Below are positions 5,856 through 29,119 of a stretch of DNA of 64,000 nucleotides, one piece after another. The stretch is from the NCBI GenBank assembly GCA_038869735.1, contig JAWCQO010000005.1, forward strand, positions 7,538-71,537, in the 5' to 3' direction. The notes below the pieces were generated by a model. The model was not told the DNA's origin. It did no database searches and saw nothing but the letters and a program-made list of their open reading frames with translations. The stretch's first letter is position 1. Each line of letters starts with the position of its first letter. The DNA is from Candidatus Anstonellales archaeon (GTDB lineage: Archaea > Micrarchaeota > Micrarchaeia > Anstonellales > CG1-02-47-40). A program made the translations under genes and the position numbers.

Positions 5856-5877
5856 CTAAACCCCCTAGGTCTTTGAA

Positions 5878-6048: not shown

Positions 6049-6053
6049 CTTTT

Positions 6054-6275: not shown

Positions 6276-6308
6276 ACACCACTATTTGTTTGTTTTAGTT
6301 TGTCGGTT

Positions 6309-6815: not shown

Positions 6816-6907
6816 CTCACCGCTGTCTAGATGGCGGCATCATTGGCCTTATTTGTAAGAATAAGTGCCCGGTTTATCTTCTTTTTGTCAGGCCTTCCTT
6901 TAAAAGC

Positions 6908-7291
6908 TTATTTATATATCTTTGCCAGAATTGCGCCTCCGATTGCAGAGAGGATAGGAGATATAATTAGACTTGCAAAAAATATGGCAACCCCACTAAA
7001 AAGCGGGTTGAATCTGAGTCCAAGAGCTGGAAAAAGGAAAAGAGGATAGATTATGCCAGCTAAAAATCCTCCAAGTATGCCAGCAACAAAACCTCCCATG
7101 GCTCCAATAACTGCGCCGTCTTTTGTTGATATTGGTCCACCATATTGAAACCGCAGTGCACTTGAGGATACTGCTCCTCCAATTATGTAAGGAATAAAGC
7201 AACAGACGCTTCCAGCGATTCCGCCGCTAAGTCCGCCTAAAACAACAGAAATGCCTCGTTGTACATTGTCACCGGCTTCAATTATGTGCAT
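6908..7291 (-). CDS. Gly-rich small membrane protein
   Basis: Hydrophobic, Gly-rich segments; no family call. Confidence 0.4.
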   Translation of the reverse strand: MHIIEAGDNVQRGISVVLGGLSGGIAGSVCCFIPYIIGGAVSSSALRFQYGGPISTKDGAVIGAMGGFVAGILGGFLAGIIYPLFLFPALGLRFNPLFSGVAIFFASLIISPILSAIGGAILAKIYK

Positions 7292-7325
7292 AAAAAATCA
7301 ACCTTTGCTAAAGAATCTGGAGATT

Positions 7326-7700
7326 TTATAGATTTATTTTTATAAATTCACCCTCCCCTTTTGCAATCTTGTATGCATCAGCTATTATTGCAACAGCGAA
7401 CCCGACTAATAATAAAAAAACAACAAAAGGAATGCAACATAGAGCCCCAATTCCAAGTAAAGGGGATGCCACACTGACAAGTGAGTAGATAATTGCCCCT
7501 ATAACTAGAGCGAGTAGATAAATTATGTTTAGGACAATTCCACGTTTTATTCTTCTGATATAAATGTGCCCCAGGGCAGGGAACAAACCAAAAAGAAGAA
7601 ACCCAACGATGCCAATAAAAAGTGTAACTGTCGGGTCGTGGGGAGTAGCCCCCCTTTCTGTTGTTTTTGTCTTATTCATCTTAGCATCTTTTGATTTCAA
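7326..7700 (-). CDS. Small membrane protein (3 predicted TM)
   Basis: Hydrophobic segments; no family call. Confidence 0.4.
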   Translation of the reverse strand: MKSKDAKMNKTKTTERGATPHDPTVTLFIGIVGFLLFGLFPALGHIYIRRIKRGIVLNIIYLLALVIGAIIYSLVSVASPLLGIGALCCIPFVVFLLLVGFAVAIIADAYKIAKGEGEFIKINL

Positions 7701-8097
7701 TAGTTATATAAACGTTTTGGGGACCTTTAAGATAAGTTGTTGAGGTTTTGTGGTTTGTAGCTGGAGCGTTTCCGCAAGCTTAGTCTTTTTTTTGATGAGA
7801 CTTTGAGTATAAGATAGTGCAAGATAGTGCATGAGTTCTTGAGGAGGAAATGTTCGGATGCGAAGCGGATGTTGCGAGTTGTTGTTTGACTTTAGCTTGG
7901 ACAGACGTTGGGGGTGTGTTTTGCTCTATGTTTGTTGGGTTGATTTGTTAAGTTATGTTAGATATTTGTCAAGTTCGAATCGTTTTCGGGAGCAGGCTCT
8001 ATGATTTTTTTCTAATATGGTTGAATTTTCTAAGGATTAGACCACATAAGCTATTGATAACGCTTCCAGAATCCGAACATTTAGATGACTGCAATTT

Positions 8098-9624: not shown

Positions 9625-9686
9625 CGCAAATTATTAATTGTGTATATATTTTATATCTTGCCTTGCATTAACTTATAGGGCAAATT

Positions 9687-10478
9687 ATGATTGAAAGAGA
9701 GAAATACCTAGAAATGGCACGCATGTCTATGAAGGAGAAGATTTCTTCCCCTGATCTCCTTATTTCCCAAACCGTTGCAACTATAAGCGAACTTGACAGA
9801 TGCATAAATGTTTTGTATGAGAAATTGGCTGAATGGTACGGACTGTATTTTCCAGAGTTAAAGCTGTCAGATATGCGCACATACTGCCAGGTAGTCATTA
9901 AGTTTGACAGAAAAAAGCAAAACGTCGCTTCTATTCTATCTGTTGTTGGTGAGAAGAACGCAGAAGTAGTAGTCTCTAAAGCCAAGACCTCTGCCGGTGC
10001 AGATTTCTCTGATGATGATTTGGAAGAAGTGCGCAAGCTTGCAAGGCACGTTCTTGAGCTTTATGAGTTGCGTGATGAGATTGAAAAGTATCAGGCTTCT
10101 CTTGCAAGGAAATTCTATCCAAACTTATCTTACTTGCTTGAGCCGGCTCTTGCCGCGAAGATGGTATCTCTTGCAGGCTCACTTAGGAAGCTTGCTCTTC
10201 TTCCTGCAAGTACGATTCAGGTTATGGGTGCAACAAAAGCTTTATTTAAGCATCTAAAAACTGGTTCAAAACCACCAAAGCACGGGGTCATCTTTCAGCA
10301 TCCTTCAATATCAGGAGCGCCAAGAAAGCTTCGCGGAAAAATCGCGCGCGCCCTTGCATCAAAGATAGCCATAGCCGCAAGGGCGGATGCATTCACTGGA
10401 GCGCAAATAGGGAAAAAATTAAAGGAGGAGTTTGAAAGGCGAGTTGGTGAGATAAGAGGAGGGAGCAGACGAGAATGA
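9687..10478 (+). CDS. nop5: Nop5 (Nop56/58-like) box C/D snoRNP protein, short form with coiled-coil and Nop domain
   Basis: LAEWYGLYFPEL and the Nop domain MGATKALFKHL..PKHGVIFQHPSI..APRKLRGKIARALASKIAIAARADAF. Confidence 0.75.
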   Translation: MIEREKYLEMARMSMKEKISSPDLLISQTVATISELDRCINVLYEKLAEWYGLYFPELKLSDMRTYCQVVIKFDRKKQNVASILSVVGEKNAEVVVSKAKTSAGADFSDDDLEEVRKLARHVLELYELRDEIEKYQASLARKFYPNLSYLLEPALAAKMVSLAGSLRKLALLPASTIQVMGATKALFKHLKTGSKPPKHGVIFQHPSISGAPRKLRGKIARALASKIAIAARADAFTGAQIGKKLKEEFERRVGEIRGGSRRE

Positions 10479-13424: not shown

Positions 13425-16400
13425 GGGTAAGCAATCGCATTTTTGACGCTAAGGGCGGCGGATGAAGAATGCGAGCGCGTCGTGCGGTTGCGCGAGCGCT
13501 TTATGAGGATGAAGGGAAAACCGTAAGATTCACAAGAGAGTATGGATATGATATGCTGCTTTAGGCTTGGCAGGGGATAGCTTGGCTTGGGCAATATATC
13601 CGCCGTGGCAAGCAGCGAAATGCCCGTGGTAGGCGCAGGCTGCCTGTAATCACGGGGTTGCGGATTTACGCGGGGAATTAAAACATTCTAGTACCCGCAG
13701 GAAAAGAAAAAAATTTGATTTGGCTAGTAAGGGCGACTGAACGCCAAACAGGGCGACCCGAATAGTCCGTCGCGAGGCGGAAAAGATGTGGGACCGCAAA
13801 ATCTCTCTCTGTGGAGAAGAAACCTCTGGAAAGTGGTGCCATAGAGGGTGAAAGCCCCGTATTCGAACCGGAGAGAGACGAGGTAAAAAGAGTAGTGTCC
13901 ATTGGTGATTGGGCACAAATATGGCAGAATCAACTGCCAACCCTAAATATACCCCAAGACCGATAGCGTACAAGTAGCGCGAGCGAAAGCTGAAAAGGAC
14001 CCCGGGAGGGGTGTGAAAAGAGCTTGAAACTGTCAAGCCACAGTTTGATGCGGCCAAAAAGCGGTTTATGTCCTTCAAAGCAACTGCTGGAGACGGCAGA
14101 AGCGAGAAGGAAGTAGCATGGTTGCATCGTCCTTCTATAAGCAAGGGCCAGGGAGTTTTCCTCAACGGCGAGGCGAAAGCCGGAGCGAAAGCGAGTACTA
14201 ACGTGCGACAAGTCGTTGGGGAAAGACCCGAAGCCGATGTGAGCTATACGTGGGCAGGGCGAAGCCGGCCTGACGGCTGGTGAAGGCCCGCAACCAGTAC
14301 TAGTATATTCTGTTTGGGTGACCTGCGTATAGGGGTGATAGTCCAGTCGAACTCGGCAATAGCGGGCTCCTCCTGAAGTATATCTCAGTATAGCGGCGCC
14401 GGAGCATGTCATACAGGGTAGAGCACTGATTAGGAGGAATGGGCCCGAGAGGGCTCGCCTTCTTGTCAAACTCCGAATCTGTATGAAGCGTAGATGGTGC
14501 TAGTAGGCTTCTCTCGGGTAAGCCGAGAGGACTGTACGGGAACAACCGTTACCGCGGTTAAGGCCCCCAAATCTTGGCTAAGTGCAACTTAAAAGAGTCT
14601 CTGCTCAAAAACAGCTGGGAGGTAGGCTTAGAAGCAGCCATCCTTCAAACAACGCGTAATAGCGGACCAGCCGAGAGCGCAGATTCTGAAAATGCTCGGG
14701 GCTATAAGCCAAGTGCCGATACCGCGGAGTGGCGCATTATGTAGATGCGCGCAATCTGGTAAGGAGGCGAACCGGTTGGGCAGAAGCGCGGGCGTAAGCT
14801 CGCGTGGACCGGCTGGTTATGATAATCCTGGTATTAGTAGCAGCATATCCAGGTGAGAATCCTGGACGCCGGAAGCACGCGGGTTCCTTGGCGATGCTCG
14901 TCAGCCAAGGGTAAGGCGATCCTAAGCGTCGCGCTAATCGCAAAGACGCGAAAGGGAAACCGGTTAAGATTCCGGTTCCAGACGGATAGGTGCGGTAACG
15001 CGAGGGTGTCTTTCTGACGCTTTGGGGTAGGCTCAGTGGAGGAGACTCCATTTAAGCAGGATAGTTCTCTGGAGTCTAGTTGTTAGGAGAAGGAGAACAA
15101 ACTGCGAAGGCCACACGGTTGAGCTGACCCCTGGAGCCCGTGAAAAGGAAAGACACAGCGATTCCGTCTGCTCGTACCTAGAACCAGTACAGGTGGTGCT
15201 GGCAGAAAAAGCCAAGGCGTGGCAGGAGAACTCTCGTAAGGGAACTTGGCAAATTAGTGGCGTAACTTCGGGATAAGCCATGCCTGCGGTTCTCTAAAAA
15301 GGAACTGCAGGTCTCAGTGACAAGGGGAGACCGACTGTTTACCAAAAACACAGGTCATCGCTGAGCCGAAAGGCTGAGTACAATGGCCGATGCCTGCTCA
15401 CTACTGGTACGTCAAACTCCGGTCCAACGGAGCGAAGCGCCAGCAAAGAGCGGGGGTAACTCTGACCCTCTTAAGGTAGCGTAATACCTCGCCGCTTAAT
15501 TGGTGGCTTGCATGAAGGGCATAACGAGTCTCCCACTGTCCCTACGAGGGACCTGGTGAACTTACTACTCTGTGAATATGCAGAGGACTTCCAGGGGGAA
15601 ACGAAGACCCCGTGGAGCTTTACTATAGCCTGTTGTTGGAATGCGGTGATGGTCGCGGAGCGTAAATGGGAGCCGTTAAGCCGTACCTTTTGGGGTGCGG
15701 ATAGGCGCCGTTGTAACACCATTCGGCTGTTATTGCATTTCTTACCGGAAGGGACAGCGACAGGTGGATAGTTTGGCTGGGGCGGTACATCCTCGATAAG
15801 GAAACAAGGATGCCCAATGTTCGGCTTAGGTGCGTCAGAAATGCACCGTTAAGGGACAAGGACAAATGCCGGACTGACTGTATCCCTAAAAGCATCGGAT
15901 GCAGAGGCGAAAGCCGGGCCTAACGAACCTTGGTATCCCTTTTGATGAGGGTCCAAGCTGTCAGACAAGCTACCCCGGGGGTAACAGGCTCGTCGCGGGC
16001 GAGAGACGCCTATCTTTAAGTTTTTAAAAAAGAAGGTAGGTGCTCAAATACCCATCGACCCCGCGGTTTGGTACATCGCTGTCGGCCTAGGTCATCCTGG
16101 CGGTGCAGGAGCCGCCAATGGTTGGGTTGTTCATCCATTAAAGACCTACACGAGCTGGGTTCAGAACGTCGCGAGACAGTTCGGTAGTATCTCCTGGGAG
16201 TGCAAATCCGCCTGAGAGGAAGAACCCTTAAGTACGAGAGGAACTTGGGTTCGAAGCCTCTGGTGTACCGGTTGTGAAAAGCAGATGCCGGGCAGCTACG
16301 CTTTATGGGATAAGACCTGAAAGCATCTAAGGTCGAAGCTCATCTCAAAACGAGGCGGTTTGGCGGTCGTAGCAGACGACTTTGATAGGAGGGAGGTGTA

Positions 16401-16460
16401 AGAGCCAAGCGCAAGCGAGGCTTTCAGCCTGCCCCTTACTAAAAGCCAGATGTATATCAT
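13425..16460 (+). rRNA. 23S: 23S (large-subunit) rRNA; ends approximate to +/-50 nt
   Basis: 5'-domain matches include ggcggatgaagaatgcgagcg, gggaattaaaacattctagtacccgcaggaaaagaaa and ctggaaagtggtgccatagagggtgaaagccccgta. The peptidyl-transferase region has ctgggttcagaacgtcgcgagacagttcggt. The sarcin-ricin loop agtacgagaggaac is at about 16223. Confidence 0.85.
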
Positions 16461-16685
16461 ATCCATTCCCTCTTCTGGAGCTTGCGGTTTTCTCAAAATC
16501 CTTAAAAACACTTTTTTCTGAAGTTCTGGTGCTTGAATGTGTTTAGACTGGCTCTTTCTTGCGCTATCTAACTTCTAATCTTTGCTTTCTATAGTTGTTG
16601 CTGCCTATAGGGTAATAATATTGCCACAATATTGAAAACGAAGGATATAGGCTTCCTTGCGCTATCTGCCTCTAATCTTTGCTAT

Positions 16686-19600
16686 CTAAGTTTCCTCCTC
16701 GCATTTTAGCTGTTGATTTGACACAACGTTTGCAAAGACGCATGACTTGGAGATGTCAAGTCCGGGTTTACATGCTGGAACGTCTCTTCCTCTGTTTCCA
16801 TATATGATTGGGGTTACGTCTCTCCCTGCTACTTCCATTTTTGCATAGGTATGGTATACCTTTTCGTCAGGCTGAATCTGCCCGTCGAGATTGCTGTCCT
16901 CTTCGCTTGCTATGCAACACCTCATGGATGGAGGAAGTGACGCAAGATACTCAATGTACAGGAAGGATTCGTCTTGTTCTGTTTCTGGGTTGTTATAAGA
17001 CATATTCTGAATGGAGGGTGGTTCTTTTACCGTGCCGTCAGTATAAGTACACTTAACAAAATCTTGAGATTCGTCCCCATCGTAAGACGGATTTGTACAG
17101 AGTCTCTCGCTGCATACCTCTCTTCTTGCGCATAGAAGTGGGCATTTATAGCCGTAAGGCCAGTCATCTCCTGCTGGAATATCACACATAGAGCCATCTG
17201 CACAAATATTTGAAACGCCGGCTGTCTGCTCTGACTTTGTTCTTCTTTCACATGTGCACTTCTGGCTATCTGCAACCAATCTAACATAAGTCGTTTTTGT
17301 TGATAAGTCAACGGTGAGCCTTGAGGCGTTTTGAATCACGCAAAATGGCTGCTCCTCTGGAGAGAGAGTCTCATTAAAACCATAAGGTTGGAGTTCATTT
17401 CTTGGCTCATGGATTCCTATAATTCCACTGGAGGATAAGTTTGACGAGAGTTTTATTAGCTCCTGAATCAGTCGCGCCCTGTCTATATCTTGCCAGCTGT
17501 CACACTGAGGAGCCTCTGTTGCCCTTTCTCCAAAGTATATGAGGGATGGTAAGTTGAAATCCATAAGAAGCTTTCTTGAAGCGTTTGTCAAGTTTGTTGC
17601 CATCAGGAGCGCTTGCTCTTCCGGGGACAGCGCGCAGAACGACGGATTTCCTCCTGAATAATAAGCCATTTCGGGAATATAGGGCATTATGATTATCAGG
17701 TCAAGCTCTTTTAAAAATTCAGTGTCTATCGTACCTGGCGAGGGCGTGTGCACTACTCTTTTGTAAGTTATCCCGTTAATTGTTTGTACGTTTCCGTCTG
17801 CCTGCTCATTTAGGAGCAAGGCATAAGAAATTGCATTAACGTCTTGCATTGGAATAGCCTCGCCATCTAAAGTCGGTGAAACGCCTCTAAGGGCAGGAAT
17901 TATGACTGCAGTTAGGGCGTGAGGAAACTTGCGTTTGTAGTATATGACTTTGTTTTTTATGTCTTCTATCTTAGAGGTGTTTCGCAGAAGGTACTGTTGT
18001 CCGTTGTTGTTTAGAATTGTAACCTCTGAGAGGTTAATAGTGTGAAGAGCAAGTATTGTTGTTCCTTGGTCCTTTAGGTATTTTGCAAGATTTGCTGGAA
18101 GAAATGTGTCGAATTTGTTTTGTGGTGAGAGTCTACAGGAGTAATAGGAGTAACATTCTGAAGGATTGTGTTGCTCGCACCACCCGTTTGATGCACAGGC
18201 ACTACCGGTCCATTCACATGATGGAGAATCTTCGCATCGAAGCATGGTTTTGTCTTCGCAGTCGCCTATACAGGAAAAAGAAGTTACATTTGCTAAATAC
18301 GGAAGCGTGTTTGGAACAACAAGAATTGGAAGAGTGGAGGCTTTTTGATATTTTTGTATTTTTACATGGAGGTAGTTTGGGTCTGGCAAAAACGAGGGAC
18401 CTTGGGCAGTCATTGTTGGATGGGGTGATTGGTTGGGTTGTTCGTCTTGGACATACACTGTCACACCCTTTGCGTCTGTGTCGTTGTATGACTTAAAGGG
18501 AGAGGGAGGCGCACAGTCATAACAATATCCATTGGAAGCTGTGCATTCCCCATAGCTCTCGCTTTGAGTAAGGCAAACTGGAGTGTTTTGCTCGGTAGGC
18601 GAAATTTGTTGCACTGCACTGGTAGAAAGTGAGCAGGGCTCGCACCCTCCCCAAGAGTAGATGAGAAGTTGGCCTTCGCGCTCTGGGTCGGAAAGACAGT
18701 CTCCAAAAAGGATTTTTCCAGCATCTTGGCCTTCTCCTTGGTGTGGAGTGATAAGCACAAGGGTTTGGGTTCTTGTTGGTTCCCAGAAAAGTTCATGGGG
18801 CCACCAATCTAAACTGCCTCCCTCATGATCAAAGAATTTAAGCTCGAAAATAGTGAATGTGCCGTATCTTATGTGAAAATCAGTTCCAAGCCTCATGTTG
18901 CAGGCGCTAAGAAGTGGTATTCTTTGTTTTATTTCTTGTTCTGTGTAGTGGGAGTTGTACAGGACAGTATAGGCACGAGAAGTTTCATTAGAAGTCGTTG
19001 TTTTGGACATGTCTATCTCTAGCGGGCCTTCGAGTCTGTTGTTCTCGTACCAGTATCTGCAATTATAATGGTTATCGCCTATCTGACCAACTCCTTGTTG
19101 ATTTTCACCACTGCCTACTGAAATTGAGTGACAGATATACAGCGTATCAGACCACCTATCATTAGGGAATAGAGTTCTTTCATCTGGAATTGGTGGAATT
19201 GCTCTTTCAGGCTGTCCTTCGTATGGGCAGAAGTCTTGATTTCCAAGGCCTTGATAACCTCGGGAGTCTCCGTCTCTAGAAAATGAATAAGTATTGCCGT
19301 CAATTGTAGCAGTACAGCGAAAGGTTTGGGAACTGCCGCTGTTAGAAAAGTTGCCTCCTGTGCAAACATAACATGCTGAACCGACCGATGTATCTCGCGG
19401 ATGAATAGTAGCTCTCATAGGAAGTTTTTCGTTAGCAGAAAGAGCGTTTACCTTGCACTTTGTCTTTCCAAAGCTATCGATGTAGCAGCCGCAGTCAACG
19501 GGCGTTCCGTCTTTAAGAATGCATTTGTTGGTTGGGAGTATATTCTTGTTGCAGATGCCAGAGTAGCACTCCCCGTTTGATTGGCAAAGCGCACTTGCGC

Positions 19601-20981
19601 CCGGAATTATGTTTAGGATTTTTGAGTTGCGATTATCACACAGTTCTGGCCCTACCTGCTCTTCGTTGTCAAGCCTGTTGTTGGAATTTTCATCCAAGTA
19701 GCAAACGCAGCCTGGTTCTGGGCAGTAGCCGTTTGCTATTTCAAATTCGTATTGTTCTTTTATTTTGGAGATATAATAATCGGTGTCTATTTTTTTTGTA
19801 GTCTCTGTTGCGTAAAGCGTGCCATTGGGCCTTGAAATATTTAATTTTTCTTCTGTTGTTACATATTGACTTCTTGCTAAGAATGGTAGATATACTCTCT
19901 CATCAGCCTGTCCTGTTGGGAGAGAGCATGAACGCTGTGGGTAGCAATTATCCATGCACGCTCCTTTGCTTGAGTACTGCTTTCCTGTGCTGGCACAAGT
20001 CCACTTTATTCTCTTTACTATGGATATGTTAAACTCCTTTGTCCAGTGGCACTCGCCGCCGTCGCCGTATTTATAGTCCTCGCATGGTGTTCCCCTTAGA
20101 AGCTCATCTATGTTTGAATAACAGTTTGCTGTTATAAGTACACCCGAAGGAGAATTTACGGGGTGGGCTTCGCCCCATTTAGTTGTATACCCGATAAGGT
20201 AGCCTTTGAGTGGCCCTGATGCAAACTGCCGCTCAACGTAATTTAGATATCTGTCTTTTTGGTATTTGTTATAATCACTAAAGCCGCAGAAGACATCTGA
20301 GATGGGAGTATAAAGGCGCGCCTCTTCGAATGTTGAGAAATTGTTTGCGACTCCAAAGCGGAATGTGTTTATGAACGCTGTCGGAGACGACTTAAATTCC
20401 CTATTTGTCTCTTTGTTGAGTGGCTTGAAAGAACAGAAAGTTCCAAACAGCCCCTCCGGAACATCTGTAAAATCAAAAGAAGAAGTAGAGAAGGCGGTTG
20501 GGTTTAGGTCTTGTGGTTGGGGTAGTGCTCGGTCTCGTGCATTAAGGTAGTCAGACAAACTCATAGATATGCGTGGGTTATAGGAGGTCCTGCCGCAAAT
20601 CATTGCCGCGCAGTCTGGCGCTATACAGGGGTCAGATGGAATTTGGCCGCAAACGGGGATTTTGCTGTCTACACCATTGACACAGCCTGGTGGACACCAT
20701 TGAGGATTTCCATTTGCATCTGCTGGACAGATAGAAGGGTCGCAGTAATATGTGCAGTTTAGCCTTTCATTTTCGGGACCTAAATCTGATATGCTTGGGC
20801 ATTCAAGCCTCTGGCTTCCATTGAGGCTTAGAACATCTCTACATTGAAAGCTTGAGGTGTAGTTACCTGAAGCGCAACAAGAAGTGTATGCGGTTTGAGC
20901 AACGCATCCGACAAGAAAAAGGAGAGGGGATATCACTAAAATGAACGAGCCGATTGATGCCGAAACTGAAATCTTTTTCAT
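16686..20981 (-). CDS. Giant (1431 aa) secreted cysteine-rich protein. It is the last gene of the seven-gene surface operon. It has an N-terminal signal peptide and no C-terminal anchor.
   Basis: Start MKKISVSASIGSFILVISPLLFLVGCVAQ. Cys-rich throughout with many N-x-S/T sites. Only 4 nt separate it from the upstream gene. Confidence 0.75.
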   Translation of the reverse strand: MKKISVSASIGSFILVISPLLFLVGCVAQTAYTSCCASGNYTSSFQCRDVLSLNGSQRLECPSISDLGPENERLNCTYYCDPSICPADANGNPQWCPPGCVNGVDSKIPVCGQIPSDPCIAPDCAAMICGRTSYNPRISMSLSDYLNARDRALPQPQDLNPTAFSTSSFDFTDVPEGLFGTFCSFKPLNKETNREFKSSPTAFINTFRFGVANNFSTFEEARLYTPISDVFCGFSDYNKYQKDRYLNYVERQFASGPLKGYLIGYTTKWGEAHPVNSPSGVLITANCYSNIDELLRGTPCEDYKYGDGGECHWTKEFNISIVKRIKWTCASTGKQYSSKGACMDNCYPQRSCSLPTGQADERVYLPFLARSQYVTTEEKLNISRPNGTLYATETTKKIDTDYYISKIKEQYEFEIANGYCPEPGCVCYLDENSNNRLDNEEQVGPELCDNRNSKILNIIPGASALCQSNGECYSGICNKNILPTNKCILKDGTPVDCGCYIDSFGKTKCKVNALSANEKLPMRATIHPRDTSVGSACYVCTGGNFSNSGSSQTFRCTATIDGNTYSFSRDGDSRGYQGLGNQDFCPYEGQPERAIPPIPDERTLFPNDRWSDTLYICHSISVGSGENQQGVGQIGDNHYNCRYWYENNRLEGPLEIDMSKTTTSNETSRAYTVLYNSHYTEQEIKQRIPLLSACNMRLGTDFHIRYGTFTIFELKFFDHEGGSLDWWPHELFWEPTRTQTLVLITPHQGEGQDAGKILFGDCLSDPEREGQLLIYSWGGCEPCSLSTSAVQQISPTEQNTPVCLTQSESYGECTASNGYCYDCAPPSPFKSYNDTDAKGVTVYVQDEQPNQSPHPTMTAQGPSFLPDPNYLHVKIQKYQKASTLPILVVPNTLPYLANVTSFSCIGDCEDKTMLRCEDSPSCEWTGSACASNGWCEQHNPSECYSYYSCRLSPQNKFDTFLPANLAKYLKDQGTTILALHTINLSEVTILNNNGQQYLLRNTSKIEDIKNKVIYYKRKFPHALTAVIIPALRGVSPTLDGEAIPMQDVNAISYALLLNEQADGNVQTINGITYKRVVHTPSPGTIDTEFLKELDLIIIMPYIPEMAYYSGGNPSFCALSPEEQALLMATNLTNASRKLLMDFNLPSLIYFGERATEAPQCDSWQDIDRARLIQELIKLSSNLSSSGIIGIHEPRNELQPYGFNETLSPEEQPFCVIQNASRLTVDLSTKTTYVRLVADSQKCTCERRTKSEQTAGVSNICADGSMCDIPAGDDWPYGYKCPLLCARREVCSERLCTNPSYDGDESQDFVKCTYTDGTVKEPPSIQNMSYNNPETEQDESFLYIEYLASLPPSMRCCIASEEDSNLDGQIQPDEKVYHTYAKMEVAGRDVTPIIYGNRGRDVPACKPGLDISKSCVFANVVSNQQLKCEEET

Positions 20982-20985
20982 GTAC

Positions 20986-22026
20986 TCATATCACCTTTGA
21001 TATAGCTGAAGTAAGTTCTCCTAATTCCCCTCCAAGGAGTGGTGTTATTATGCGCACAAAAATAAGAGTTAGAGCAAAAGCAATAAATGGATAGTACATT
21101 ATACCGATGGTAAGGGTTGCAAGCTCTGATGAGAAGAGTTCAAATGTACTTCTGCTTATGTCAACGTTCTGGGTTATTGTTGAAAGTGTAACTGATGCGC
21201 CAGAAAAACCGGCATAGCATGCATTGAACACCTCTGTTTTTGGAGTGACGTCTATATCGCCGGATCCGTGAGCATATGCTGGATCCATAACGACATAGAA
21301 TGCAGGGAGTATAAAATAAAAGCCCATCGCAACGGCTATAAGAAGGCCTCCGGCCCCTCTTGTAAATTGAAATATTCGAAGGAGGATGCCAAGAGGAAGA
21401 AAAACTGACAGCATATTCTTCTCTATATAATCGAGGAAGATGTATTGCGCGTGTAGATGGATAAGGAGTGGAGTTATTTTTGAGCCAAGAAGATGGGCGC
21501 GCTCAACATCTCCACGCAAGAACCAGTCACCGCAGTAAACCTGAATGCCTACAAAGCTCAAACAAAATGCAGCTTGCTTTTCGGTTTCTTTGTTTTGTTC
21601 AAAAATTCTCTGATACATTTTGTCAAGAAAGTTTATTTTTTCCTGTATTCTGCACTTTGCAAAGGATATTGGGTTTCCGATTATAAGTCCGTTTTGGTCG
21701 ATTGAAAATGTTATCGGCTGTCCTCCACACTCTATTGCGGTATCTTGGCCTATTATTATTGCAATGGTGATAAATGCGGCTAGGTTGACAAGATTTATAA
21801 GCATGACTATGAGGATTGATGATGCAGATGCCTGAAGCATCTCTGAAATGGCCCAGCGCTTTATATTTTCAAGAGATAATGACCTTCCAATGACGTATAC
21901 TATTGTAAAGAAGAAAATGCATAGTGCTACTGCTGAAAGCGCAACGGCATTCCACCCAAGGCCTTCCCAGACGGAGATGAGGCCTGTGGTTGAGCCATAA
22001 GATTGGAGGATGTATGCGGGCTCCAT
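20986..22026 (-). CDS. Paralog P6 (346 aa) of the new 5-TM membrane family; minimal form with about 105-aa extracellular loop
   Basis: Core motif LPLGILLRIFQFTRGAGGLLIAVAMGFYFILP; C-terminal tail LLGGELGELTSAISKVI. Confidence 0.7.
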   Translation of the reverse strand: MEPAYILQSYGSTTGLISVWEGLGWNAVALSAVALCIFFFTIVYVIGRSLSLENIKRWAISEMLQASASSILIVMLINLVNLAAFITIAIIIGQDTAIECGGQPITFSIDQNGLIIGNPISFAKCRIQEKINFLDKMYQRIFEQNKETEKQAAFCLSFVGIQVYCGDWFLRGDVERAHLLGSKITPLLIHLHAQYIFLDYIEKNMLSVFLPLGILLRIFQFTRGAGGLLIAVAMGFYFILPAFYVVMDPAYAHGSGDIDVTPKTEVFNACYAGFSGASVTLSTITQNVDISRSTFELFSSELATLTIGIMYYPFIAFALTLIFVRIITPLLGGELGELTSAISKVI

Positions 22027-23037
22027 TCATATCAACCTCGATAATCTTCCTGCATCAACCTCTTGTCCTAACAATCCTGAAACCTGCGATATAGCCGCAA
22101 CAACAACAATAAGATTGATGGAAGTTATAAAGACTGAACCAAAGAATATTAGAGTTGCATTTTTTATAAGGAAGATAACGTCTGTACCTTCTTGGATTGT
22201 AGAGGAGTAAATCGCTGGAAAGAAAAGGCCCTCCAACATCAAGAGGAACGGAAAGAAGATGTAAAGCGCGACTCCAAGGCCTATCAGGGAACCTCCAAAC
22301 ATGCGCATAAATGGTATGCTGCGAAGTATGATACCCCAAACAAGGCAGAAGATGAGAAAGGAGTTAGTATAATCGGTGCCTACAAGAAGAATGTTATAGA
22401 CGCCTATCTGCGCAAGGATGGTAGCAAGGGATATTAGAGACGAGTTCATAAACAAAGTGAGAACTGCGTTGTGTGCCTGCACTCCGGATTCTGGATTTAA
22501 AGAAACTCCAGAACCCCCAAGGATGCAGAGGGTTTTGCAGTTCCATAGTGTGAGAGTCAATTTCCTTTCATTTAGGCCTATAATTTCGCGTAGATTATAA
22601 AACGTAGAATAGGAGATTGTTTGCATATAGACTAAAAACTTTTTTGCTGCAGTGTAGACGTTGTCTGACTCCTGAAAATCTACATTGGCTTGAGATTCAA
22701 TAGGTATCTGCGGAAGGTTGGTGAGCGTTACTGCGCTTCCTACCTCAATAGAGCAGAAGAGCGTCAAAATTTGGAGTATTAGTGCAATTATAATGGCAGT
22801 GCTGATAAGTTGCATAACTTCATCTTTTGACCAGGCCACTAGCCGAGGATAGCTGAGAAACTCTCCAGCAGCATATGTTATTGCTATCAGTCCTGCAAGT
22901 GCCGCAAATCCCGCGGTTGCGTAAGAGATTGCAGGCGAAAATAGATTTTGTGGCTGCTCACATATCGCTTGTTGGGAAAATGCAAACCCTCCGAGGGCAA
23001 GAACAAAAAATAATAGTGTGTTGTTTGTTCTTATCAT
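22027..23037 (-). CDS. Paralog P5 (about 336 aa). The likely start is at 23037 (MIRTNNTLLFF...), overlapping the P4 stop as ATGA; the longest ORF reaches 23097.
   Basis: Signal-like N-terminus; core motif ILRSIPFMRMFGGSLIGLGVALYIFFP; tail LLGQEVDAGRLSRLI. Confidence 0.7.
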   Translation of the reverse strand: MIRTNNTLLFFVLALGGFAFSQQAICEQPQNLFSPAISYATAGFAALAGLIAITYAAGEFLSYPRLVAWSKDEVMQLISTAIIIALILQILTLFCSIEVGSAVTLTNLPQIPIESQANVDFQESDNVYTAAKKFLVYMQTISYSTFYNLREIIGLNERKLTLTLWNCKTLCILGGSGVSLNPESGVQAHNAVLTLFMNSSLISLATILAQIGVYNILLVGTDYTNSFLIFCLVWGIILRSIPFMRMFGGSLIGLGVALYIFFPFLLMLEGLFFPAIYSSTIQEGTDVIFLIKNATLIFFGSVFITSINLIVVVAAISQVSGLLGQEVDAGRLSRLI

Positions 23038-24317
23038 TGCGACAACCTCACAAGGGTCGATATGTCTATTTGAGAGCCAAACATTGCTGCAAGCCACTGG
23101 ATAAACAGAAGCGTTATTGTTAGGTTCAGCGCAGTCGCAAATATGGAGCGCAGATATACTTGAAAGATGAGTGGTTCAAAGTTGTAAATGCTTTTGTTAT
23201 CGCCTATTTCTGTTTGGCCGATTAATGGTTCGATGAATTTTTCGCGTGTGCTTGCGTAGGAAAAATCAAATGGGTCGCATGTTTGAGTGCGAATCGTATT
23301 TGCAAGATTAGAATTTTGGTTGCTTCTGTAAGCTTGCAAGTACTCATTAGAGTCTAAAATTTCTCCAAAAAGAATTTTTTCTGAAAAAAGGAAAGTAAGC
23401 GGCAGGACAAGGTATAGCCCAGCTGCAAATGCTATTAACGTTCCACCTACTTTTCGCGTGAAGTTGAAAGTGCGAAGGAAGATTCCTATAGGAAGCAGGA
23501 TAGAGAAAGCATAATTCTTTGCAAAGCTCATGATAAGGAAAATTGCCTGAAAATCTGTAACAGCAAGAGACAATGATGTTGTCGCATGGGTGATGGAAGG
23601 GCGCATTGCATTTATGGCGGAACATGTGATTATTGAATACCCAACACCTAATATTGAGCAATAGCCGGATTTTGAGCCTTCTTGTCCCGATTTCTTTGAA
23701 ATTTCAAGATAGTTTGAGAGTAGGTCTTCGTAATTGCTCTTTACATCTTCAAGGGTTGCAAACGCGTAGTCATAAAATGTCCCCTCTACTTCTGCCCCAC
23801 CAGCTAAAGACTTAAATGCTGGGAGGAGAGAGGCGTCTAGATAATAAGCCATGCTAGTAAGAGAAGCTAGAATCAGTGCTGTAAAGATAAGTTGGGTCAG
23901 CTCATCTTTAGTATAGGTTTTTAGTTCAGTTATATTGAAGACGGAGCTACCCATATAAAGTAGCGATATTAATGAAGCGGAGATAAGAAAAGCTATGAGT
24001 ACTAGAGGAAGCCATTGTGACTGGCAACGGCAGTTAGAGCATGAGGCAGTTAAAGGACATCCGCCTCTTAGTTCTACTGCAGAAACTTCGCACTCCTCGC
24101 CTTGGTCAAGAACTCCGTTTCCACAGATTGGAAGCTGAACGTTGACGTTTTCTGCAATACATTCGCCGTTTTGGCAGATATAACCTTCTTGACATGGAGG
24201 GGAGCAGAGTGCAGCGTTTCCTCCTTCTCCAGCGGAGAAAAGAACAGCTGAGGCTAGGATAATGAAAAAGAGCTCAAGTATCAACGCCTTTTGTTGCTTC
24301 ATTTTGCTCCACATCAC
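23034..24317 (-). CDS. Paralog P4 (427 aa). It has a signal peptide, a small Cys-rich N-terminal ectodomain with one CGNGVLDQGEEC repeat, and the 5-TM core.
   Basis: ICGNGVLDQGEECEV. Core FLRTFNFTRKVGGTLIAFAAGLYLVLP. Tail AAMFGSQIDISTLVRLSQ. Confidence 0.7.
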   Translation of the reverse strand: MMWSKMKQQKALILELFFIILASAVLFSAGEGGNAALCSPPCQEGYICQNGECIAENVNVQLPICGNGVLDQGEECEVSAVELRGGCPLTASCSNCRCQSQWLPLVLIAFLISASLISLLYMGSSVFNITELKTYTKDELTQLIFTALILASLTSMAYYLDASLLPAFKSLAGGAEVEGTFYDYAFATLEDVKSNYEDLLSNYLEISKKSGQEGSKSGYCSILGVGYSIITCSAINAMRPSITHATTSLSLAVTDFQAIFLIMSFAKNYAFSILLPIGIFLRTFNFTRKVGGTLIAFAAGLYLVLPLTFLFSEKILFGEILDSNEYLQAYRSNQNSNLANTIRTQTCDPFDFSYASTREKFIEPLIGQTEIGDNKSIYNFEPLIFQVYLRSIFATALNLTITLLFIQWLAAMFGSQIDISTLVRLSQ

Positions 24318-26614
24318 AAAAATCTTGATATTCCCGGAAGTTCTATATCTCCTCCGAATGTTTGGGAAAAAACTCTAATGAATGCTATCAAGACAACTAT
24401 ATTAAAGAGTGGAAGAACGTAAGCAGGAATTGCAAGCACACCTACATTTTTTGTGTCACTCATGGTTGTTTTTGCTCCTGTCTGGCTGGATATAAAGCCT
24501 GCAGGGGTAAAATCGCGTGAAGCGGCGGTTGGGAGATTGCAAACTTCTGCACAATTTGTCCGTATTGGGGGTATTGTGGTGCAGTCATCATCACATTTGA
24601 GGCACGAAGTGCAAAGTGATGGCGGTGAGTCTGTTGTGAAATTGCTTTTGCATTCCTTGTTGCAATATGGTTCAAGGCAACTTGCGGGACAGTTTATGTC
24701 TCCAGCGTCTGCAACTCTGCACCTTTTTGGGCATGCAGAACATGTTCCGTCGGGTTGTGGTTGTATTGAGCCGTAGTTTTGACGAGTTGGAAAGTTTGCA
24801 CAGTTTTGAGAGGGAGAGGGGATCTGAATTCCACAATAAGCTCGACAGGCAACACAGGAAGGGTTGGTCCTACAATGTAATTGGAAGTAGTTGTCAGCGT
24901 CCTCATTGTCTTGGATGTTGGCGATGCGGCATTCGCGCTGGCAGCTTCCGCAAAGGGTAAGGCAGTCAAGTAGTTTTGGGTCTGGAATCCCTATCCTGCA
25001 GTTTGGTTCGTTTTCGCTTCTTCCCATTGGGCAATGTTCTTCTGTACATTCCTCGCATGCTTTCCAGACAGATTCTCCGTTTTCCTGCACTGGAAAGTCT
25101 GATGGCTTTGGAATTCTCCAATAGCCATCGACGGGGTCGTTTGGGTCATCATCTGACTTATCATCCGGATAAAGTGGATTGAAGTAATAAACACGACAAA
25201 AGTCTGGGCATAGTGTGCACTTGCCTTGGCATTCTGGCGACATATAACTGACTGAATTTATTATTGCACATCCAGATATATAGCAGCCATCTTGAGAATC
25301 TTCTATTCTATTTGCTCTGGAGCAAGTATTTTCACCAAATAACTGTTTGATTTCCTCCGGGGGGTCGGGTTTTTCGTCATCAGAAAAACATGTTGTCCTC
25401 TCGCGATAAGGGACATATGCTTGGTTGTCTGAATTCAGCTTACTTTTTCCTCCAACCTTACACTCGTCCGGGCAAGTGGAGCAAACGGCCCGTACATCAA
25501 CGTCCTTAACTATTTGACCTGCGTGTTCAGAGTCTTCTGCTATGAGATCTGATTTGGTGCAAGAAGGATTTTGGATAGGATAGGGAATTTCTCTACATAT
25601 GGAGGGACATGAGAGGATTACGGTTTGGCCAGTTATAGTCTCACCTTCTTGATTTACAACCATTTGATTTGTCAGTTGTCTCTTGCAACTTCCAAGCTCT
25701 TCGCAAGTGTTTATTTTCGGTGGGTTGAAAGTGCATTCTCCAGGACAATAATCTGGAGGTGGGGAGACCATCTGGTCTCCAAACACTGCAACTTTTAGAG
25801 TAAACCAAGAAAAGACGTAGAGCATTGGCCAGACTAAAAGCAGGGATATTCCGATTGCAAGTAAAAGCCCTCCTAATCTGCGCGAAAAGAAAAATGTGCG
25901 GAGGATAACTCCATAAAAAATGAGCACAGATGAAAGAGATGCTGACTGCGGGTTATTTGTTGAAGCCAGATTGGATAGAAAGCTTTTTTGGGTGGCAAGC
26001 GAAGAGTATATCCCTGAGAGAACATCGAAGTTGTATGAATATCTTTCTGTGTACATGGAATAGCCGGCATTTTTTCCTGAATAATAAGCGGCCCAGAGTG
26101 TGTAGTACGTGTTGGTAGACACTCCTTCTCGCTCAGAGGATTTTTTTGCATTTTCAAACGCATCTATGAGATTTGATTTTAGCGTTGAGTTTGTAATTGA
26201 AAGAAGCGAATCTAAGTAGCACAAACCAAGCGAGATTACATACGGCTGATTCTGGATGGGTTGGCAGGCAAATTGGCCTGCTGTTATTGATAGTAGAAAC
26301 GAAGAAAGGAACGAGAAAATAGCGATAAGAGAGATTATTATCAGAGCTGAAGCAAAGACTTGTGAGAGTTCTGTATTTGCCCAGACTTTTATTTCTGGGA
26401 TGTTTAGCCCTATCCCAACAATATATGCAATAGAAACGATGGATAAGGAGATGGCCAGCGCGATTATTGATGCCGATTGCCAATTTCCATTTCCAAGAAA
26501 TTGATTATATGTAAGATCTATGGGGGATAGCTGTAGGAGTGGCTGTGGGTACGAGAAAGTAGAGAATAGCAAAAGAACGAGGAGGATCTGCGTCTTTTTT
26601 AATTTTGTATTCAT
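24314..26614 (-). CDS. Paralog P3 (766 aa). The 5-TM core carries an about 420-aa Cys-rich ectodomain inserted between TM4 and TM5 rather than at the N-terminus.
   Basis: Core VILRTFFFSRRLGGLLLAIGISLLLVWP is followed by a long Cys-rich region. Final TM and tail: FIRVFSQTFGGDIELPGISRFL. Confidence 0.7.
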   Translation of the reverse strand: MNTKLKKTQILLVLLLFSTFSYPQPLLQLSPIDLTYNQFLGNGNWQSASIIALAISLSIVSIAYIVGIGLNIPEIKVWANTELSQVFASALIIISLIAIFSFLSSFLLSITAGQFACQPIQNQPYVISLGLCYLDSLLSITNSTLKSNLIDAFENAKKSSEREGVSTNTYYTLWAAYYSGKNAGYSMYTERYSYNFDVLSGIYSSLATQKSFLSNLASTNNPQSASLSSVLIFYGVILRTFFFSRRLGGLLLAIGISLLLVWPMLYVFSWFTLKVAVFGDQMVSPPPDYCPGECTFNPPKINTCEELGSCKRQLTNQMVVNQEGETITGQTVILSCPSICREIPYPIQNPSCTKSDLIAEDSEHAGQIVKDVDVRAVCSTCPDECKVGGKSKLNSDNQAYVPYRERTTCFSDDEKPDPPEEIKQLFGENTCSRANRIEDSQDGCYISGCAIINSVSYMSPECQGKCTLCPDFCRVYYFNPLYPDDKSDDDPNDPVDGYWRIPKPSDFPVQENGESVWKACEECTEEHCPMGRSENEPNCRIGIPDPKLLDCLTLCGSCQRECRIANIQDNEDADNYFQLHCRTNPSCVACRAYCGIQIPSPSQNCANFPTRQNYGSIQPQPDGTCSACPKRCRVADAGDINCPASCLEPYCNKECKSNFTTDSPPSLCTSCLKCDDDCTTIPPIRTNCAEVCNLPTAASRDFTPAGFISSQTGAKTTMSDTKNVGVLAIPAYVLPLFNIVVLIAFIRVFSQTFGGDIELPGISRFL

Positions 26615-29119
26615 TTACATCCCTATTTCAGAAACCTTACGGATTGCGGATGCAAACCCATGCACTGAGGTTATTATTATAATTATCGCGAGATTCGGAA
26701 GAAAAACGGCTTGTGGGAGAAGCAAGGCGAGCGTTTTAAAGGAAACGTGTGGGTCTGCAGCAATATAAAATGAATCAAGAACTTGGCTTGTTAGAGGATA
26801 TGTGTTTGCGAAGAGGGTATAGATTGCTGGAAATATTAAGTAAAGTGAAAAGCAGAGTGCCATAAGATAGTTTCCTGCGGTCCTGGTTGGTGGAAGGACT
26901 CTTAGAAAAATTGCAAAGGATAGGAAGAGTACTATTATTGGTTGGTTTTCTTGAGGGGTGGAAATGAAAAGAAGCCTAAATAGTTCTAACTGGAGTTTTA
27001 TGCTGACTATCATTGGTATGAGCAGGTCTATCATCACTTCCTGGGATTGTGAATACGCTCTCCTGATTGCGTCTTTTGATTCTCCTTTGCCACCTTTAAA
27101 TGGAATGCCAACAAAGAGATAGTTTGTTGCTTTGAGTTGATTAGTAAGACTACCTTCAGTTAGACGTTGAACTTCTGCCGTTCCGATTCTTTGAAGAGAG
27201 TCAAGGTATTTTGTTGAGTAAACGTACATCGTTGTACCTTCCGGGACATTTAAAAATGAGCCTATGACGGCGTTTGAGTTTTCAAGAAAGTTTGTTGCTA
27301 GAATCAAAACGGCAAAAATAGCTGACCAACCAAGATGCACTGCTTCGTCTCTTAGCAATATGTCAAGATGTACATTGCCTCCGAAATATTTTGAGTACAT
27401 AAATGCAAGGGCTATGAGCAGGACGATTAAAAAAAATGCAGAGTGCACCAGTGCAGCGATGTTGCCTGAGCTAGGGCAGTCCTGTTGACAATAGACAGGT
27501 TCTGCTCCTTCACATCTGCCGTTTCCACATTCAAATGATGTTTGGATGCACCTGCAAGAATAGGGGTCGCAACTAAACTTTTCACTACAGTTGTTTTCTA
27601 TTCCAGGATCGCACTCTTCGCCTTGGTCAAGAACTCCGTTTCCACAAAGCATTTGAGGAGGCTGTTTAGTTATTAAAACCTCCTTGCTTTCTTGCGCTGA
27701 GATTATGCTATCTGAATAGATAATCGACGCTTTAAACACCAGTGTTTTTCCTTCTGAGCAGGACTCATAGAGTGGGCATACTATTGACCTTGTTAGTTGT
27801 TGGTCTGCCTGTACTTGTGTAGAGCCACTTAACAGCACTTCGGATGAAGATTCTGAACGGATTACCCACTCCCACTCAAGACTTTGGGGGCTAACACCTT
27901 CTGGAGACGGAATGGTGATCCGTAATGATGGTGATTGTGACTCTGTGGCGGGGTTTGGCGTAATGTCAGAAAGAATTGGAGGGGGATGTTCTGGCACTAA
28001 TTCATCTATAGTAGCTTCGTCAAATGTTTCATTGGAGGTGTAGCGTTCTCCTTGGCCATAAGAAAGAGTTGCATAAAACCTAAGAGTTGAACGATCAGGG
28101 CAACCGTTATCCAGATTGAAGCAGTAGTAGGTTTGATATGAGTAATTTGTTGTTCCTCTTCTGTAGGCCTGTGTTCCTTGATGAATGGTTACACTCATTC
28201 CGTCCGGTTGCGTTAATTCGAAGCGCCAGTTTATAGTGTTGGGCTCAATGATGTTTTCAGGTATTGTGACGATTCCGTTAAAAACGTCTCGGGGATTCGC
28301 ACGTTTTGGTTTAATTGAAACTGATGGTGGGAGGATAGGTTCATAGTATGCATCGTCAGATTGAGAGTAATCAGTGCAAGCATAAACAGAGCATGCCCTT
28401 ACACGAACATGAACGTTTCTTGGTGATGAGGCTGAGCACCCTGGATAGTCTGAGCATCTAAAAGACATTGCTGATTGGCCCTCCATCCATGGAGTTTCAA
28501 AGTCTGGTCCGTCTCCAAGATAGGCAACCCACTTAAATTGATAGATAAAGTTACTTGCGTCTCCCTGTCCGGCAGTGACAAGTTGACATGAGGAGCGGCC
28601 GGATATTTGGTTGCAATAATTTCTATTTGCGACAGTGGCTGAATCTATTCCTGAAGTGTATCCTCTGCATCGAATGTTCCACGGAGGTCCACTTTCGCCT
28701 TCAAGCCCTTCATCTGGGACACAAGAGTTTGAGTTTACATCCCAGTGACAACCGGCGGGTTGCTCTTGAAGAAAATAAGGAGCGTTATAATCGCTATATT
28801 GGGCACTCAAAGAATTACAATTATTTTGGTTTAGGATACTGCATCTTGCTTGTGAATTTTGAGCTCCCTGAGCAAGCTGGCATAATCTGCTGGCAAAATA
28901 ACTCCCTGCTCGGCAGCCTCCGCTCCAGTCATTGCTTATGCTAACTGTTGTTGAATACGAAGGAATTGAAATTAGTGTGAGCTCTGGTTTTTCTGGAATG
29001 CCGGACACAACATTACCGCCTGCACCCTCGTCATCATCACCGATTATGCAATTTTGTGACATAAGAAATTGAGCAGCAAATACTAGAAAGAGCAGGATGA
29101 AACTATAGGGGCTTTTCAT
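26615..29119 (-). CDS. Paralog P2 (834 aa). It has a signal peptide, an about 520-aa Cys-rich N-terminal ectodomain ending in CGNGVLDQGEECD, and the 5-TM core.
   Basis: LCGNGVLDQGEECDPGIENNC. Core AIFLRVLPPTRTAGNYLMALCFSLYLIFP. Tail SAIRKVSEIGM. Confidence 0.7.
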   Translation of the reverse strand: MKSPYSFILLFLVFAAQFLMSQNCIIGDDDEGAGGNVVSGIPEKPELTLISIPSYSTTVSISNDWSGGCRAGSYFASRLCQLAQGAQNSQARCSILNQNNCNSLSAQYSDYNAPYFLQEQPAGCHWDVNSNSCVPDEGLEGESGPPWNIRCRGYTSGIDSATVANRNYCNQISGRSSCQLVTAGQGDASNFIYQFKWVAYLGDGPDFETPWMEGQSAMSFRCSDYPGCSASSPRNVHVRVRACSVYACTDYSQSDDAYYEPILPPSVSIKPKRANPRDVFNGIVTIPENIIEPNTINWRFELTQPDGMSVTIHQGTQAYRRGTTNYSYQTYYCFNLDNGCPDRSTLRFYATLSYGQGERYTSNETFDEATIDELVPEHPPPILSDITPNPATESQSPSLRITIPSPEGVSPQSLEWEWVIRSESSSEVLLSGSTQVQADQQLTRSIVCPLYESCSEGKTLVFKASIIYSDSIISAQESKEVLITKQPPQMLCGNGVLDQGEECDPGIENNCSEKFSCDPYSCRCIQTSFECGNGRCEGAEPVYCQQDCPSSGNIAALVHSAFFLIVLLIALAFMYSKYFGGNVHLDILLRDEAVHLGWSAIFAVLILATNFLENSNAVIGSFLNVPEGTTMYVYSTKYLDSLQRIGTAEVQRLTEGSLTNQLKATNYLFVGIPFKGGKGESKDAIRRAYSQSQEVMIDLLIPMIVSIKLQLELFRLLFISTPQENQPIIVLFLSFAIFLRVLPPTRTAGNYLMALCFSLYLIFPAIYTLFANTYPLTSQVLDSFYIAADPHVSFKTLALLLPQAVFLPNLAIIIIITSVHGFASAIRKVSEIGM

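Follow-up and report, generated by a model that had tools for sequence, protein, structure and literature searches.

Locus and composition of G7

The window analysed here is a stretch of 64,000 nucleotides from contig JAWCQO010000005.1 of a Candidatus Anstonellales archaeon. The order Anstonellales belongs to the class Micrarchaeia of the phylum Microcaldota (formerly Micrarchaeota), in the DPANN kingdom. The subject of this analysis is a cluster of seven genes on the minus strand of this window, here named G1 to G7, in which six genes for related membrane proteins are followed by one for a giant cysteine-rich protein. This last gene, G7 (16686..20981, minus strand, stop codon at 16686-16688), was defined from the open reading frame (ORF) list and its translation, and encodes a candidate lipoprotein of 1431 residues. 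The ORF begins with ATG. The preceding Shine–Dalgarno-like motif, GGTGA, overlaps the 3′ end of G6, which has its stop codon 4 nt ahead of this ATG. The deposited counterpart in the NCBI Candidatus Anstonellales metagenome-assembled genome, QXN01_00590, is annotated as 'hypothetical protein' and differs at two residues (T557A, H678Y).

The mature protein has a mass of about 156 kDa and an isoelectric point of 4.9. An earlier sequence-only reading of this stretch had described G7 as a giant secreted protein, very rich in cysteine (Cys), with an N-terminal signal peptide, no further transmembrane (TM) segment and no sortase-like C-terminal tail, and the composition and hydropathy of the 1431-residue product agree with each of these points. 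G7 contains 73 Cys (5.1 %), whereas the 19 housekeeping proteins of this window with a Pfam annotation average 1.6 %, and the mean for the G7 family is 4.3 %. Hydropathy analysis placed the only hydrophobic segment at residues 3-34, and nothing else in the protein resembled a TM stretch. The C-terminus is hydrophilic (…QQLKCEEET); the protein ends …VSNQQLKCEEET without a C-terminal hydrophobic segment, and so does not show the PGF-CTERM/archaeosortase signature of a PGF motif, a TM helix and a basic tail. The many N-glycosylation sequons of the earlier description are also present, with 20 N-x-S/T sites observed against 13.2 ± 3.3 in the shuffled mature sequence (P ~0.03), but the enrichment over expectation is marginal, and the observed to expected ratio across the family is 1.17.

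G7 matched no family in Pfam or NCBIfam, and a single-sequence search against PDB sequences gave no match. A heme-binding or redox role was rejected based on the counts of CxxCH (0) and CxxC (3) motifs, and a repeat-protein reading was rejected based on the absence of internal repeats.

Signal peptide and lipobox

The signal peptide was assigned by hydropathy and conservation to residues 1-25, ending at the lipobox L-V-G-C26 (20904..20981, minus strand). The N-terminus consists of MKK followed by ISVSASIGSFILVISPLLFLVG, a positively charged n-region and then the hydrophobic h-region of a signal peptide, which is the sole hydrophobic segment of the protein. At the end of the h-region, L23-V24-G25-C26 fits the lipobox consensus [L/V/I][A/S/T/V/I][G/A/S]C, a feature that the sequence-only reading overlooked in describing the protein as having no anchor. 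The feature is conserved in the homologues: a hydrophobic stretch ending in x-x-G-C was present in 96/108 full-length relatives, most commonly as LSGC, LAGC or LFGC. A CC doublet was found in 101 of the 108, most often 9 residues past the lipobox Cys, and in a 109-sequence alignment G25, C26, C35 and C36 were each at least 90 % conserved.

Since the lipobox is family-wide, an N-terminal lipid anchor is predicted, and such an anchor would place at least the N-terminus of G7 at the membrane rather than in a distal position. A high prevalence of lipobox lipoproteins is predicted for DPANN archaea, among which a candidate lipidation enzyme, AliA (arCOG02177), has been reported, with gaps (PMC12462473). 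We consider it highly probable that G7 is an N-terminally lipid-anchored lipoprotein, with lipidation predicted from the conserved motif. In common with the archaeal lipobox lipoproteins, which are AliA/AliB-dependent and have been characterized in Haloferax volcanii, G7 has a Sec-type signal peptide and a lipobox with a family-conserved Cys; it differs from them in its size of 1431 residues, its extreme Cys content and the invariant CC doublet about 9 residues past the lipobox Cys. Of the archaeal lipoproteins known, most are substrate-binding proteins.

Distribution and conservation of the G7 family

When 1.84 billion representatives (clusters at 50 % identity) were searched exhaustively with HMMER, the G7 family comprised approximately 131 clusters, nearly all of 1200-1700 residues. 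All relatives with organism names were from Micrarchaeota/Micrarchaeia, save for one contig of 11 kb assigned to a Methanosarcinales bin. This contig has a homologue of the adjacent G6 as well, and its binning is probably wrong. A pattern scan over one genome per GTDB species gave 31 loci, all of them Micrarchaeota except for one labelled 'ainarchaeum'; both of the non-Micrarchaeota labels are probably binning or naming artefacts. The relatives were all annotated as 'hypothetical protein'. When 35 of them were compared with Pfam, no meaningful family was matched and the only hits were two chance-level singletons, and the full-length family profile matched nothing among PDB sequences.

Conservation spans the whole length of the protein as islands split by lineage-specific insertions, such that the 109-sequence alignment takes 7921 columns and several segments have an occupancy below 0.3. 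The number of columns conserved at 70 % or more was 111, of which 35 were Cys, and G7 of the window retains 90 of the 111 conserved positions. The invariant non-Cys residues of the family are R208, G210, P226, D229, Y248 and G778, mostly within residues 176-250.

The following regions are distinguished after the signal peptide, all given here in minus-strand coordinates. The N-terminal Cys-rich module (residues 27-135, 20577..20903) contains CC35-36 about 9 residues after the lipobox Cys, and conservation is 90 % or higher at C35, C36, C47, C61, C76, C111, C119, C124 and C129. The most conserved domain, with the motif NxFRFGxG…FPxSD…DRYxNY, covers 75 residues (residues 176-250, 20232..20456) and is the signature of the G7 family. 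It is followed by a Cys-knot-like motif (residues 451-510, 19452..19631), in which C466, C472 and C477 of C466-x5-C472-x-S-G-x-C477 … C499 are invariant, and by a conserved module (residues 690-800, 18582..18914) with the motif G778-x-C780-E-P-C783, in which G778 and C780 are invariant and C694, C762 and C783 reach a conservation of 90 % or more. A TIM-barrel-like (beta/alpha) domain was predicted at residues ~860-1240 (17262..18404), with a Cys-rich insertion at residues ~899-950 after strand 1 in G7 of the window. The C-terminal Cys-rich domain (residues 1241-1431, 16689..17261) has a hydrophilic end and was modelled with blocks of predicted local distance difference test (pLDDT) score mostly of 80-93; its conserved Cys are C1244, C1260, C1266, C1295, C1311, C1355/1356, C1404, C1414 and C1427.

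In one distant relative, locus L003, the signal peptide and N-terminal Cys-rich module form a separate ORF of 151 residues (4092-4547), followed by a main ORF of 1760 residues (4558-9840). The arrangement may be a genuine split, or else the product of a frameshift or an assembly error.

Membrane paralogs and conserved gene order

Upstream of G7 and in the same orientation are six genes, which overlap slightly or are separated by 0 to 4 nt, namely G1 (29120-31162), G2 (26615-29119), G3 (24314-26614), G4 (23034-24317), G5 (22027-23097) and G6 (20986..22026). Their paralogy was established by BLASTP, which also confirmed the earlier statement that the multi-TM core common to G1-G6 is missing from G7. 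G6, of 346 residues, is the core-only member of this six-paralog, five-TM family, and G1-G4 carry signal peptides and Cys-rich ectodomains. G1 also matches DUF4215 and a cysteine-rich acidic repeat, and G4 has a weak CedA/CedE match. In an 86-sequence alignment, the core of the short paralogs spans about 330 residues with five hydrophobic segments. In G6 numbering, E62, R217, G226 and P241 are invariant, conservation reaches at least 90 % at P211 and R223, and a conserved loop, FLPxGxxLRxxPxTRGxG, lies between TM3 and TM4.

Gene order was compared across 34 related loci, three found via exact homologues and 31 from the genome scan. The order G1-G2-G3-G4-G5-G6-G7 was collinear in 34/34 loci, fifteen of which contained all seven genes. 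The best match of each paralog was its own orthologue, junctions were mostly −4 to +5 nt, and a G6 orthologue was directly upstream of G7 in every locus reaching that far. The gene neighbourhood is the strongest line of evidence, and it supports a tight linkage of G7 to the six-paralog family, co-occurrence with which the sequence-only reading had suggested as a test. That each of the six paralogs has been kept across the phylum as an orthologous lineage of its own, in an unchanging order, argues for a hetero-oligomer with defined positions, and the overlapping junctions argue for co-translation of the paralogs with G7. On the strength of this synteny, G7 is very likely to be a stable partner of G1-G6, with which it would be physically associated.

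The sequence-only reading had placed G7 at the operon end and proposed it as the distal or adhesive component carried by the membrane paralogs. The first of these statements is correct for the window genome, in which a complete archaeal 23S rRNA gene (13546..16462, plus strand) is convergent with G7 and lies 223 bp from its stop codon. In most relatives, however, G7 is directly followed by another giant secreted protein of 1000-2100 residues, here named G8 (for example L010:13583-18043 and L008:13621-17361, among loci L005-L034). G8 is usually Cys-poor (mostly <1.3 % Cys) and had no match in Pfam; its N-terminal ~250 residues form a conserved domain, and its C-terminal tail is often very basic. 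Its classification as a G7 paralog was rejected, as hmmsearch with the G7 profile found no G8. No G8 was found anywhere in the 64-kb window; the closest relative of the window locus has a divergent secreted protein at the G8 position.

As a distal adhesin, G7 would bind the host surface directly, with the membrane paralogs holding it in place. The strict synteny with G1-G6 and the conserved scaffold bearing hypervariable insertions are consistent with this role, and a glycosidase-like barrel lacking its catalytic pair, as described below, could act as a lectin. Against it, the conserved lipobox would tether the N-terminus of G7 to the membrane of the organism itself, and G8, where it follows G7, is likelier to be the outermost part. 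In addition, the beta-helix, Ig (immunoglobulin)-like or lectin folds anticipated for such a component did not appear, with no Ig, PKD, beta-helix or lectin-family domain detected in 35 family members. Of the original proposal, the tight linkage to the six paralogs is therefore retained while the distal position is not; G8 is a better candidate than G7 for the distal part, and we regard the adhesin interpretation as improbable.

Predicted fold of the C-terminal half

The structure of residues 690-1431 was predicted using AlphaFold2 with a 50-sequence alignment, which gave a model with pLDDT 67, a predicted template modelling score of 0.59 and long stretches above pLDDT 80. Residues ~868-1236 were modelled as alternating helix–strand units, and Foldseek comparison of the C-terminal half with the PDB gave weak TIM-barrel matches at 7-12 % identity. 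Residues ~860-1240 therefore probably have a glycosidase-like TIM-barrel fold, as judged with moderate confidence from the predicted model.

The catalytic pair of clan GH-A glycoside hydrolases (GH) comprises an acid/base Glu, within an Asn-Glu that closes strand 4, and a nucleophile Glu that closes strand 7. Across the 109 sequences no conserved Glu was found at either position; at the end of strand 4 the family has D/N-[YFW] and G7 of the window has P-Y, and strand 7 has K/R. The conserved polar positions of the barrel are instead a D after strand 1, R1011, D1094, D1100 and K1144, and four of these are replaced in G7 of the window (N898, K1011, P1100, L1144). Profile evidence for a glycoside hydrolase was likewise lacking, with no Pfam or NCBIfam family for G7, no relevant Pfam family in 35 relatives and no PDB sequence match. 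Compared with the clan GH-A (beta/alpha)8 hydrolases (GH53, GH10, GH26 and GH5), the barrel of G7 thus has neither a Pfam or PDB sequence match nor the catalytic Glu pair, contains a Cys-rich insertion and sits inside a much larger protein; a further difference is the CxxC that most of the G7 family carries on strand 3 and that G7 of the window has lost.

As the catalytic Glu pair is not conserved, the barrel cannot be counted as an active clan GH-A enzyme. The sequence-only reading had held that a known enzymatic domain would suggest an unrelated function; a glycosidase-like fold is indeed predicted, yet the non-conservation of the catalytic pair leaves room for a binding or structural role of G7. 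Catalytically inactive glycosidase-like TIM-barrel lectins exist, for example the GH18-type chi-lectins. Possible roles of the barrel would be glycan-binding, structural or non-canonical catalytic. The alternative that G7 is an active, membrane-anchored glycosidase, harvesting or remodelling glycans of the host or of the organism itself with import of the products by the paralogs, is very unlikely. There is no conserved Asn-Glu on strand 4 or Glu on strand 7 and no CAZy-type Pfam family in 35 members, D898, D1100 and K1144 are replaced in G7 of the window, and the barrel makes up only about one quarter of the protein, with the most conserved part elsewhere.

Two Cys pairs that are otherwise 81-97 % conserved, C1019+C1022 and C1247+C1257 (window positions 17841-17924 and 17211-17243), are both gone in G7 of the window and in its closest relative, P0002. 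Their joint loss is consistent with conserved cysteines working in pairs, as disulfides or at shared sites. It is also consistent with a relaxed constraint on the barrel in a lineage that also lacks a canonical G8.

Comparison with DNA-import and type IV secretion systems

CedA and CedE are VirB6-like membrane components of a crenarchaeal DNA-import system (PMC11868833). Polytopic proteins of the VirB6/CedA kind have about 5-7 TM helices, and the G6 core, with approximately five hydrophobic segments, falls within this range. Among 86 paralogs compared with NCBIfam, six matched CedA and five matched CedE at E <0.01 (11/86), always over the central TM region, where approximately one match would be expected by chance over all 18,950 NCBIfam models and only three unrelated singletons were seen. 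This resemblance of G1-G6 to CedA/CedE is weak and is best treated as a lead rather than as family membership.

A CedB/VirB4-like ATPase (42848-44347, minus strand) is encoded in the same window, 12 kb from the G1-G7 cluster. Its best NCBIfam match was CedB (8.8e-25), ranking ahead of the VirB4, CedD, TraC and HerA models, and it matched DUF87/AAA_10/TraG in Pfam. It is preceded by a protein of 258 residues with two N-terminal TM helices (44349-45125, minus strand), with which it may form a split CedB/VirB4-like unit (42848-45125), and is possibly associated with the cluster. An unannotated protein of 238 residues follows the ATPase.

In the Ced/Ted DNA-import systems of Crenarchaeota, CedA/CedE form the VirB6-like channel, CedB/CedD are VirB4-like ATPases and CedA1 is the pilin. 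The cluster is similar to these in the approximately five TM segments of G1-G6 and their weak but recurrent CedA/CedE similarity, and a CedB-like ATPase is encoded elsewhere in the same 64-kb window. It differs in having six paralogs in fixed order rather than one or two channel proteins, with scores far below the cut-offs, and the Ced/Ted systems as described include nothing resembling G7 (PMC11868833).

A second comparison is with multi-paralog systems in bacteria. The rvh type IV secretion system of Rickettsiales has tandem VirB6 paralogs with large extra-membrane extensions, in obligate host-dependent organisms. G1-G6 are similar to these arrays in comprising several tandem paralogs with large extra-membrane extensions in host-dependent organisms. 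The rvh system, however, is bacterial, adjoins virB3/virB4 and has no counterpart of the G7 lipoprotein, and homology of G1-G6 to VirB6 is not established.

Proposed role of the G1-G7 complex

We propose, with a probability of roughly one half, that G7 is the lipid-anchored, disulfide-stabilized ectodomain subunit of a Micrarchaeota-specific envelope complex formed with G1-G6. The distant CedA/CedE (VirB6)-like character of G1-G6 makes a conduit or docking platform the most likely function of this complex. G7 would be exported through Sec, and would probably be cleaved and lipid-modified at Cys26, tethering its N-terminus to the outer face of the cytoplasmic membrane. Its 156-kDa multi-domain ectodomain, presumably stabilized by disulfides, would project beneath or through the surface layer (S-layer). 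G7 would be a fixed subunit providing a membrane-proximal scaffold, and the membrane part of the complex would be a hetero-oligomer of six distinct five-TM paralogs in defined positions. The whole would act as a trans-envelope conduit or docking platform for uptake from or exchange with the host, in which the TIM barrel, lacking the canonical catalytic pair, might serve as a glycan-binding or non-canonical glycan-processing module. A conduit function, taken by itself, is put forward only tentatively.

Several results weigh against this interpretation. For the membrane proteins, a Pfam scan of 86 paralogs matched no TrbL/VirB6 family, the paralog family profile matched no VirB6 chain among PDB sequences, and the curated NCBIfam thresholds were far from being reached (CedA 17-20 bits against a cut-off of 330, CedE 19 bits against 400). 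The operon contains no ATPase and no recognized pilin-like gene, although no pilin-specific search was made, and no homologue of the CedB-like ATPase was present within 10 kb of the cluster in 34 other loci. For G7 itself, the TIM-barrel assignment comes from a moderate-confidence model whose C-terminal half had no Foldseek match in the PDB at E ≤0.001, and the N-terminal half, including the most conserved domain, reached a pLDDT of only 54. The barrel of G7 in the window also has N898, K1011, F1019, A1022, P1100 and L1144 where the family conserves other residues.

A purely structural role would require no transport: G1-G6 would be anchors or assembly factors of a wall or S-layer-associated sheath, with G7, and G8 where present, as its building blocks. 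The large, Cys-rich, glycosylatable ectodomains and the conservation of the cluster across the phylum among housekeeping genes (TBP, dihydrouridine synthase, rRNA) would suit such a role, and a 156-kDa protein could span the 20-25 nm pseudoperiplasm under the Micrarchaeota S-layer (10.1101/2021.04.28.441871). The Micrarchaeal S-layer protein SLP_Mh (Micr_00292), however, carries PF05123 (10.1101/2021.04.28.441871), and neither G7 nor G8 has a Pfam match. Like SLP_Mh, G7 would be a large secreted, glycosylated envelope protein from the same phylum, but it is Cys-rich, bears a lipobox and lacks PF05123; G7 as an S-layer protein was rejected, since neither PF05123 nor any other S-layer domain was found by Pfam in G7 or 35 relatives. 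The invariant charged residues E62 and R217 of the paralogs, together with R223 (at least 90 % conserved), lie near or in the membrane and suggest a channel or enzyme core over passive anchors, and G7 is without internal repeats or lattice-type domains. A structural sheath is thus considered unlikely relative to the envelope complex proposed above.

A more elaborate form of the proposed complex, which we regard as speculative and on present evidence doubtful, would be a trans-envelope machine occurring throughout the Micrarchaeota. In it, six fixed VirB6/CedA-derived paralogs would form a pseudo-symmetric ring with the lipid-anchored G7 as a cap and G8 as an extension where present, docking host-derived connections or importing DNA, lipids or other macromolecules from the host.

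Genomic surroundings

The cluster is flanked by genes for dihydrouridine synthase, TBP, an RNA polymerase Rpb4-like subunit, KsgA, aIF2 and tRNA synthetases. A mobile-element origin was rejected: no tblastn match of G6 or G7 was found in 72,556 plasmids, which together with the housekeeping flanks indicates that the cluster is part of the chromosomal core rather than a mobile element.

The 23S rRNA gene is solitary, with no 16S or 5S gene detected in the 64-kb window. Between its 3′ end and the stop codon of G7 the ~38-nt element …CTT[T/C]CTTGCGCTATCT…TCTAATCTTTGCT[T/A]TCTA occurs twice (16554-16591 and 16652-16688), with a spacing of 97-98 nt, and the second copy overlaps the stop codon. A tRNA-like gene of 91 nt (52424-52514, minus strand) scored 56 bits with the Rfam tRNA model and was left unassigned by ARAGORN, which gave an anticodon of four bases, 'tcaa'; the gene may be that of a tRNA with an intron. 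At ~56000-58000 the G+C (guanine plus cytosine) content falls to 0.34 and the G/C skew passes from strongly positive to strongly negative, with a cumulative peak near 58 kb, which could reflect a switch in strand bias or a replication origin or terminus. ORFs without a Pfam match were found at 48350-50677 (plus strand, 775 residues), 36067-37146 (minus strand, 359 residues) and 37663-38736 (plus strand, 357 residues), the second of which had only a weak TolA-like low-complexity match.

Significance for Micrarchaeota

No description of the G1-G7 cluster or the G7 family was found in the papers searched on the Micrarchaeota S-layer, cultivation and genomics, DPANN electron cryotomography, Ced systems and archaeal lipoproteins. 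The lipobox, the TIM barrel and VirB6-like membrane proteins are all known ingredients, unlike the combination of six fixed paralogs with a 1400-residue Cys-rich lipoprotein and usually a second giant protein. If lipidated as predicted, the G7 family would far exceed every other predicted archaeal lipoprotein family in size and would offer a test case for archaeal lipoprotein biogenesis outside the haloarchaea.

Micrarchaeota and other DPANN archaea are unable to make many building blocks and need these to be supplied by a host, and the symbiont-side molecules of the DPANN–host interface are essentially undescribed. The cluster is phylum-wide, strictly syntenic and unannotated in all retrieved source names; the largest of its conserved products is probably a lipoprotein containing a glycosidase-like domain, and a faint resemblance to DNA-import channels is seen in its membrane subunits. 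If the ring machine outlined above were to exist, it would be an archaeal counterpart, with its own architecture, of the type IV systems with multiple VirB6 proteins that obligate bacterial symbionts possess. The cluster thus supplies concrete candidate genes to look for in cultivated Micrarchaeota such as Ca. Micrarchaeum harzensis, Ca. Mancarchaeum and Microcaldus ARM-1.

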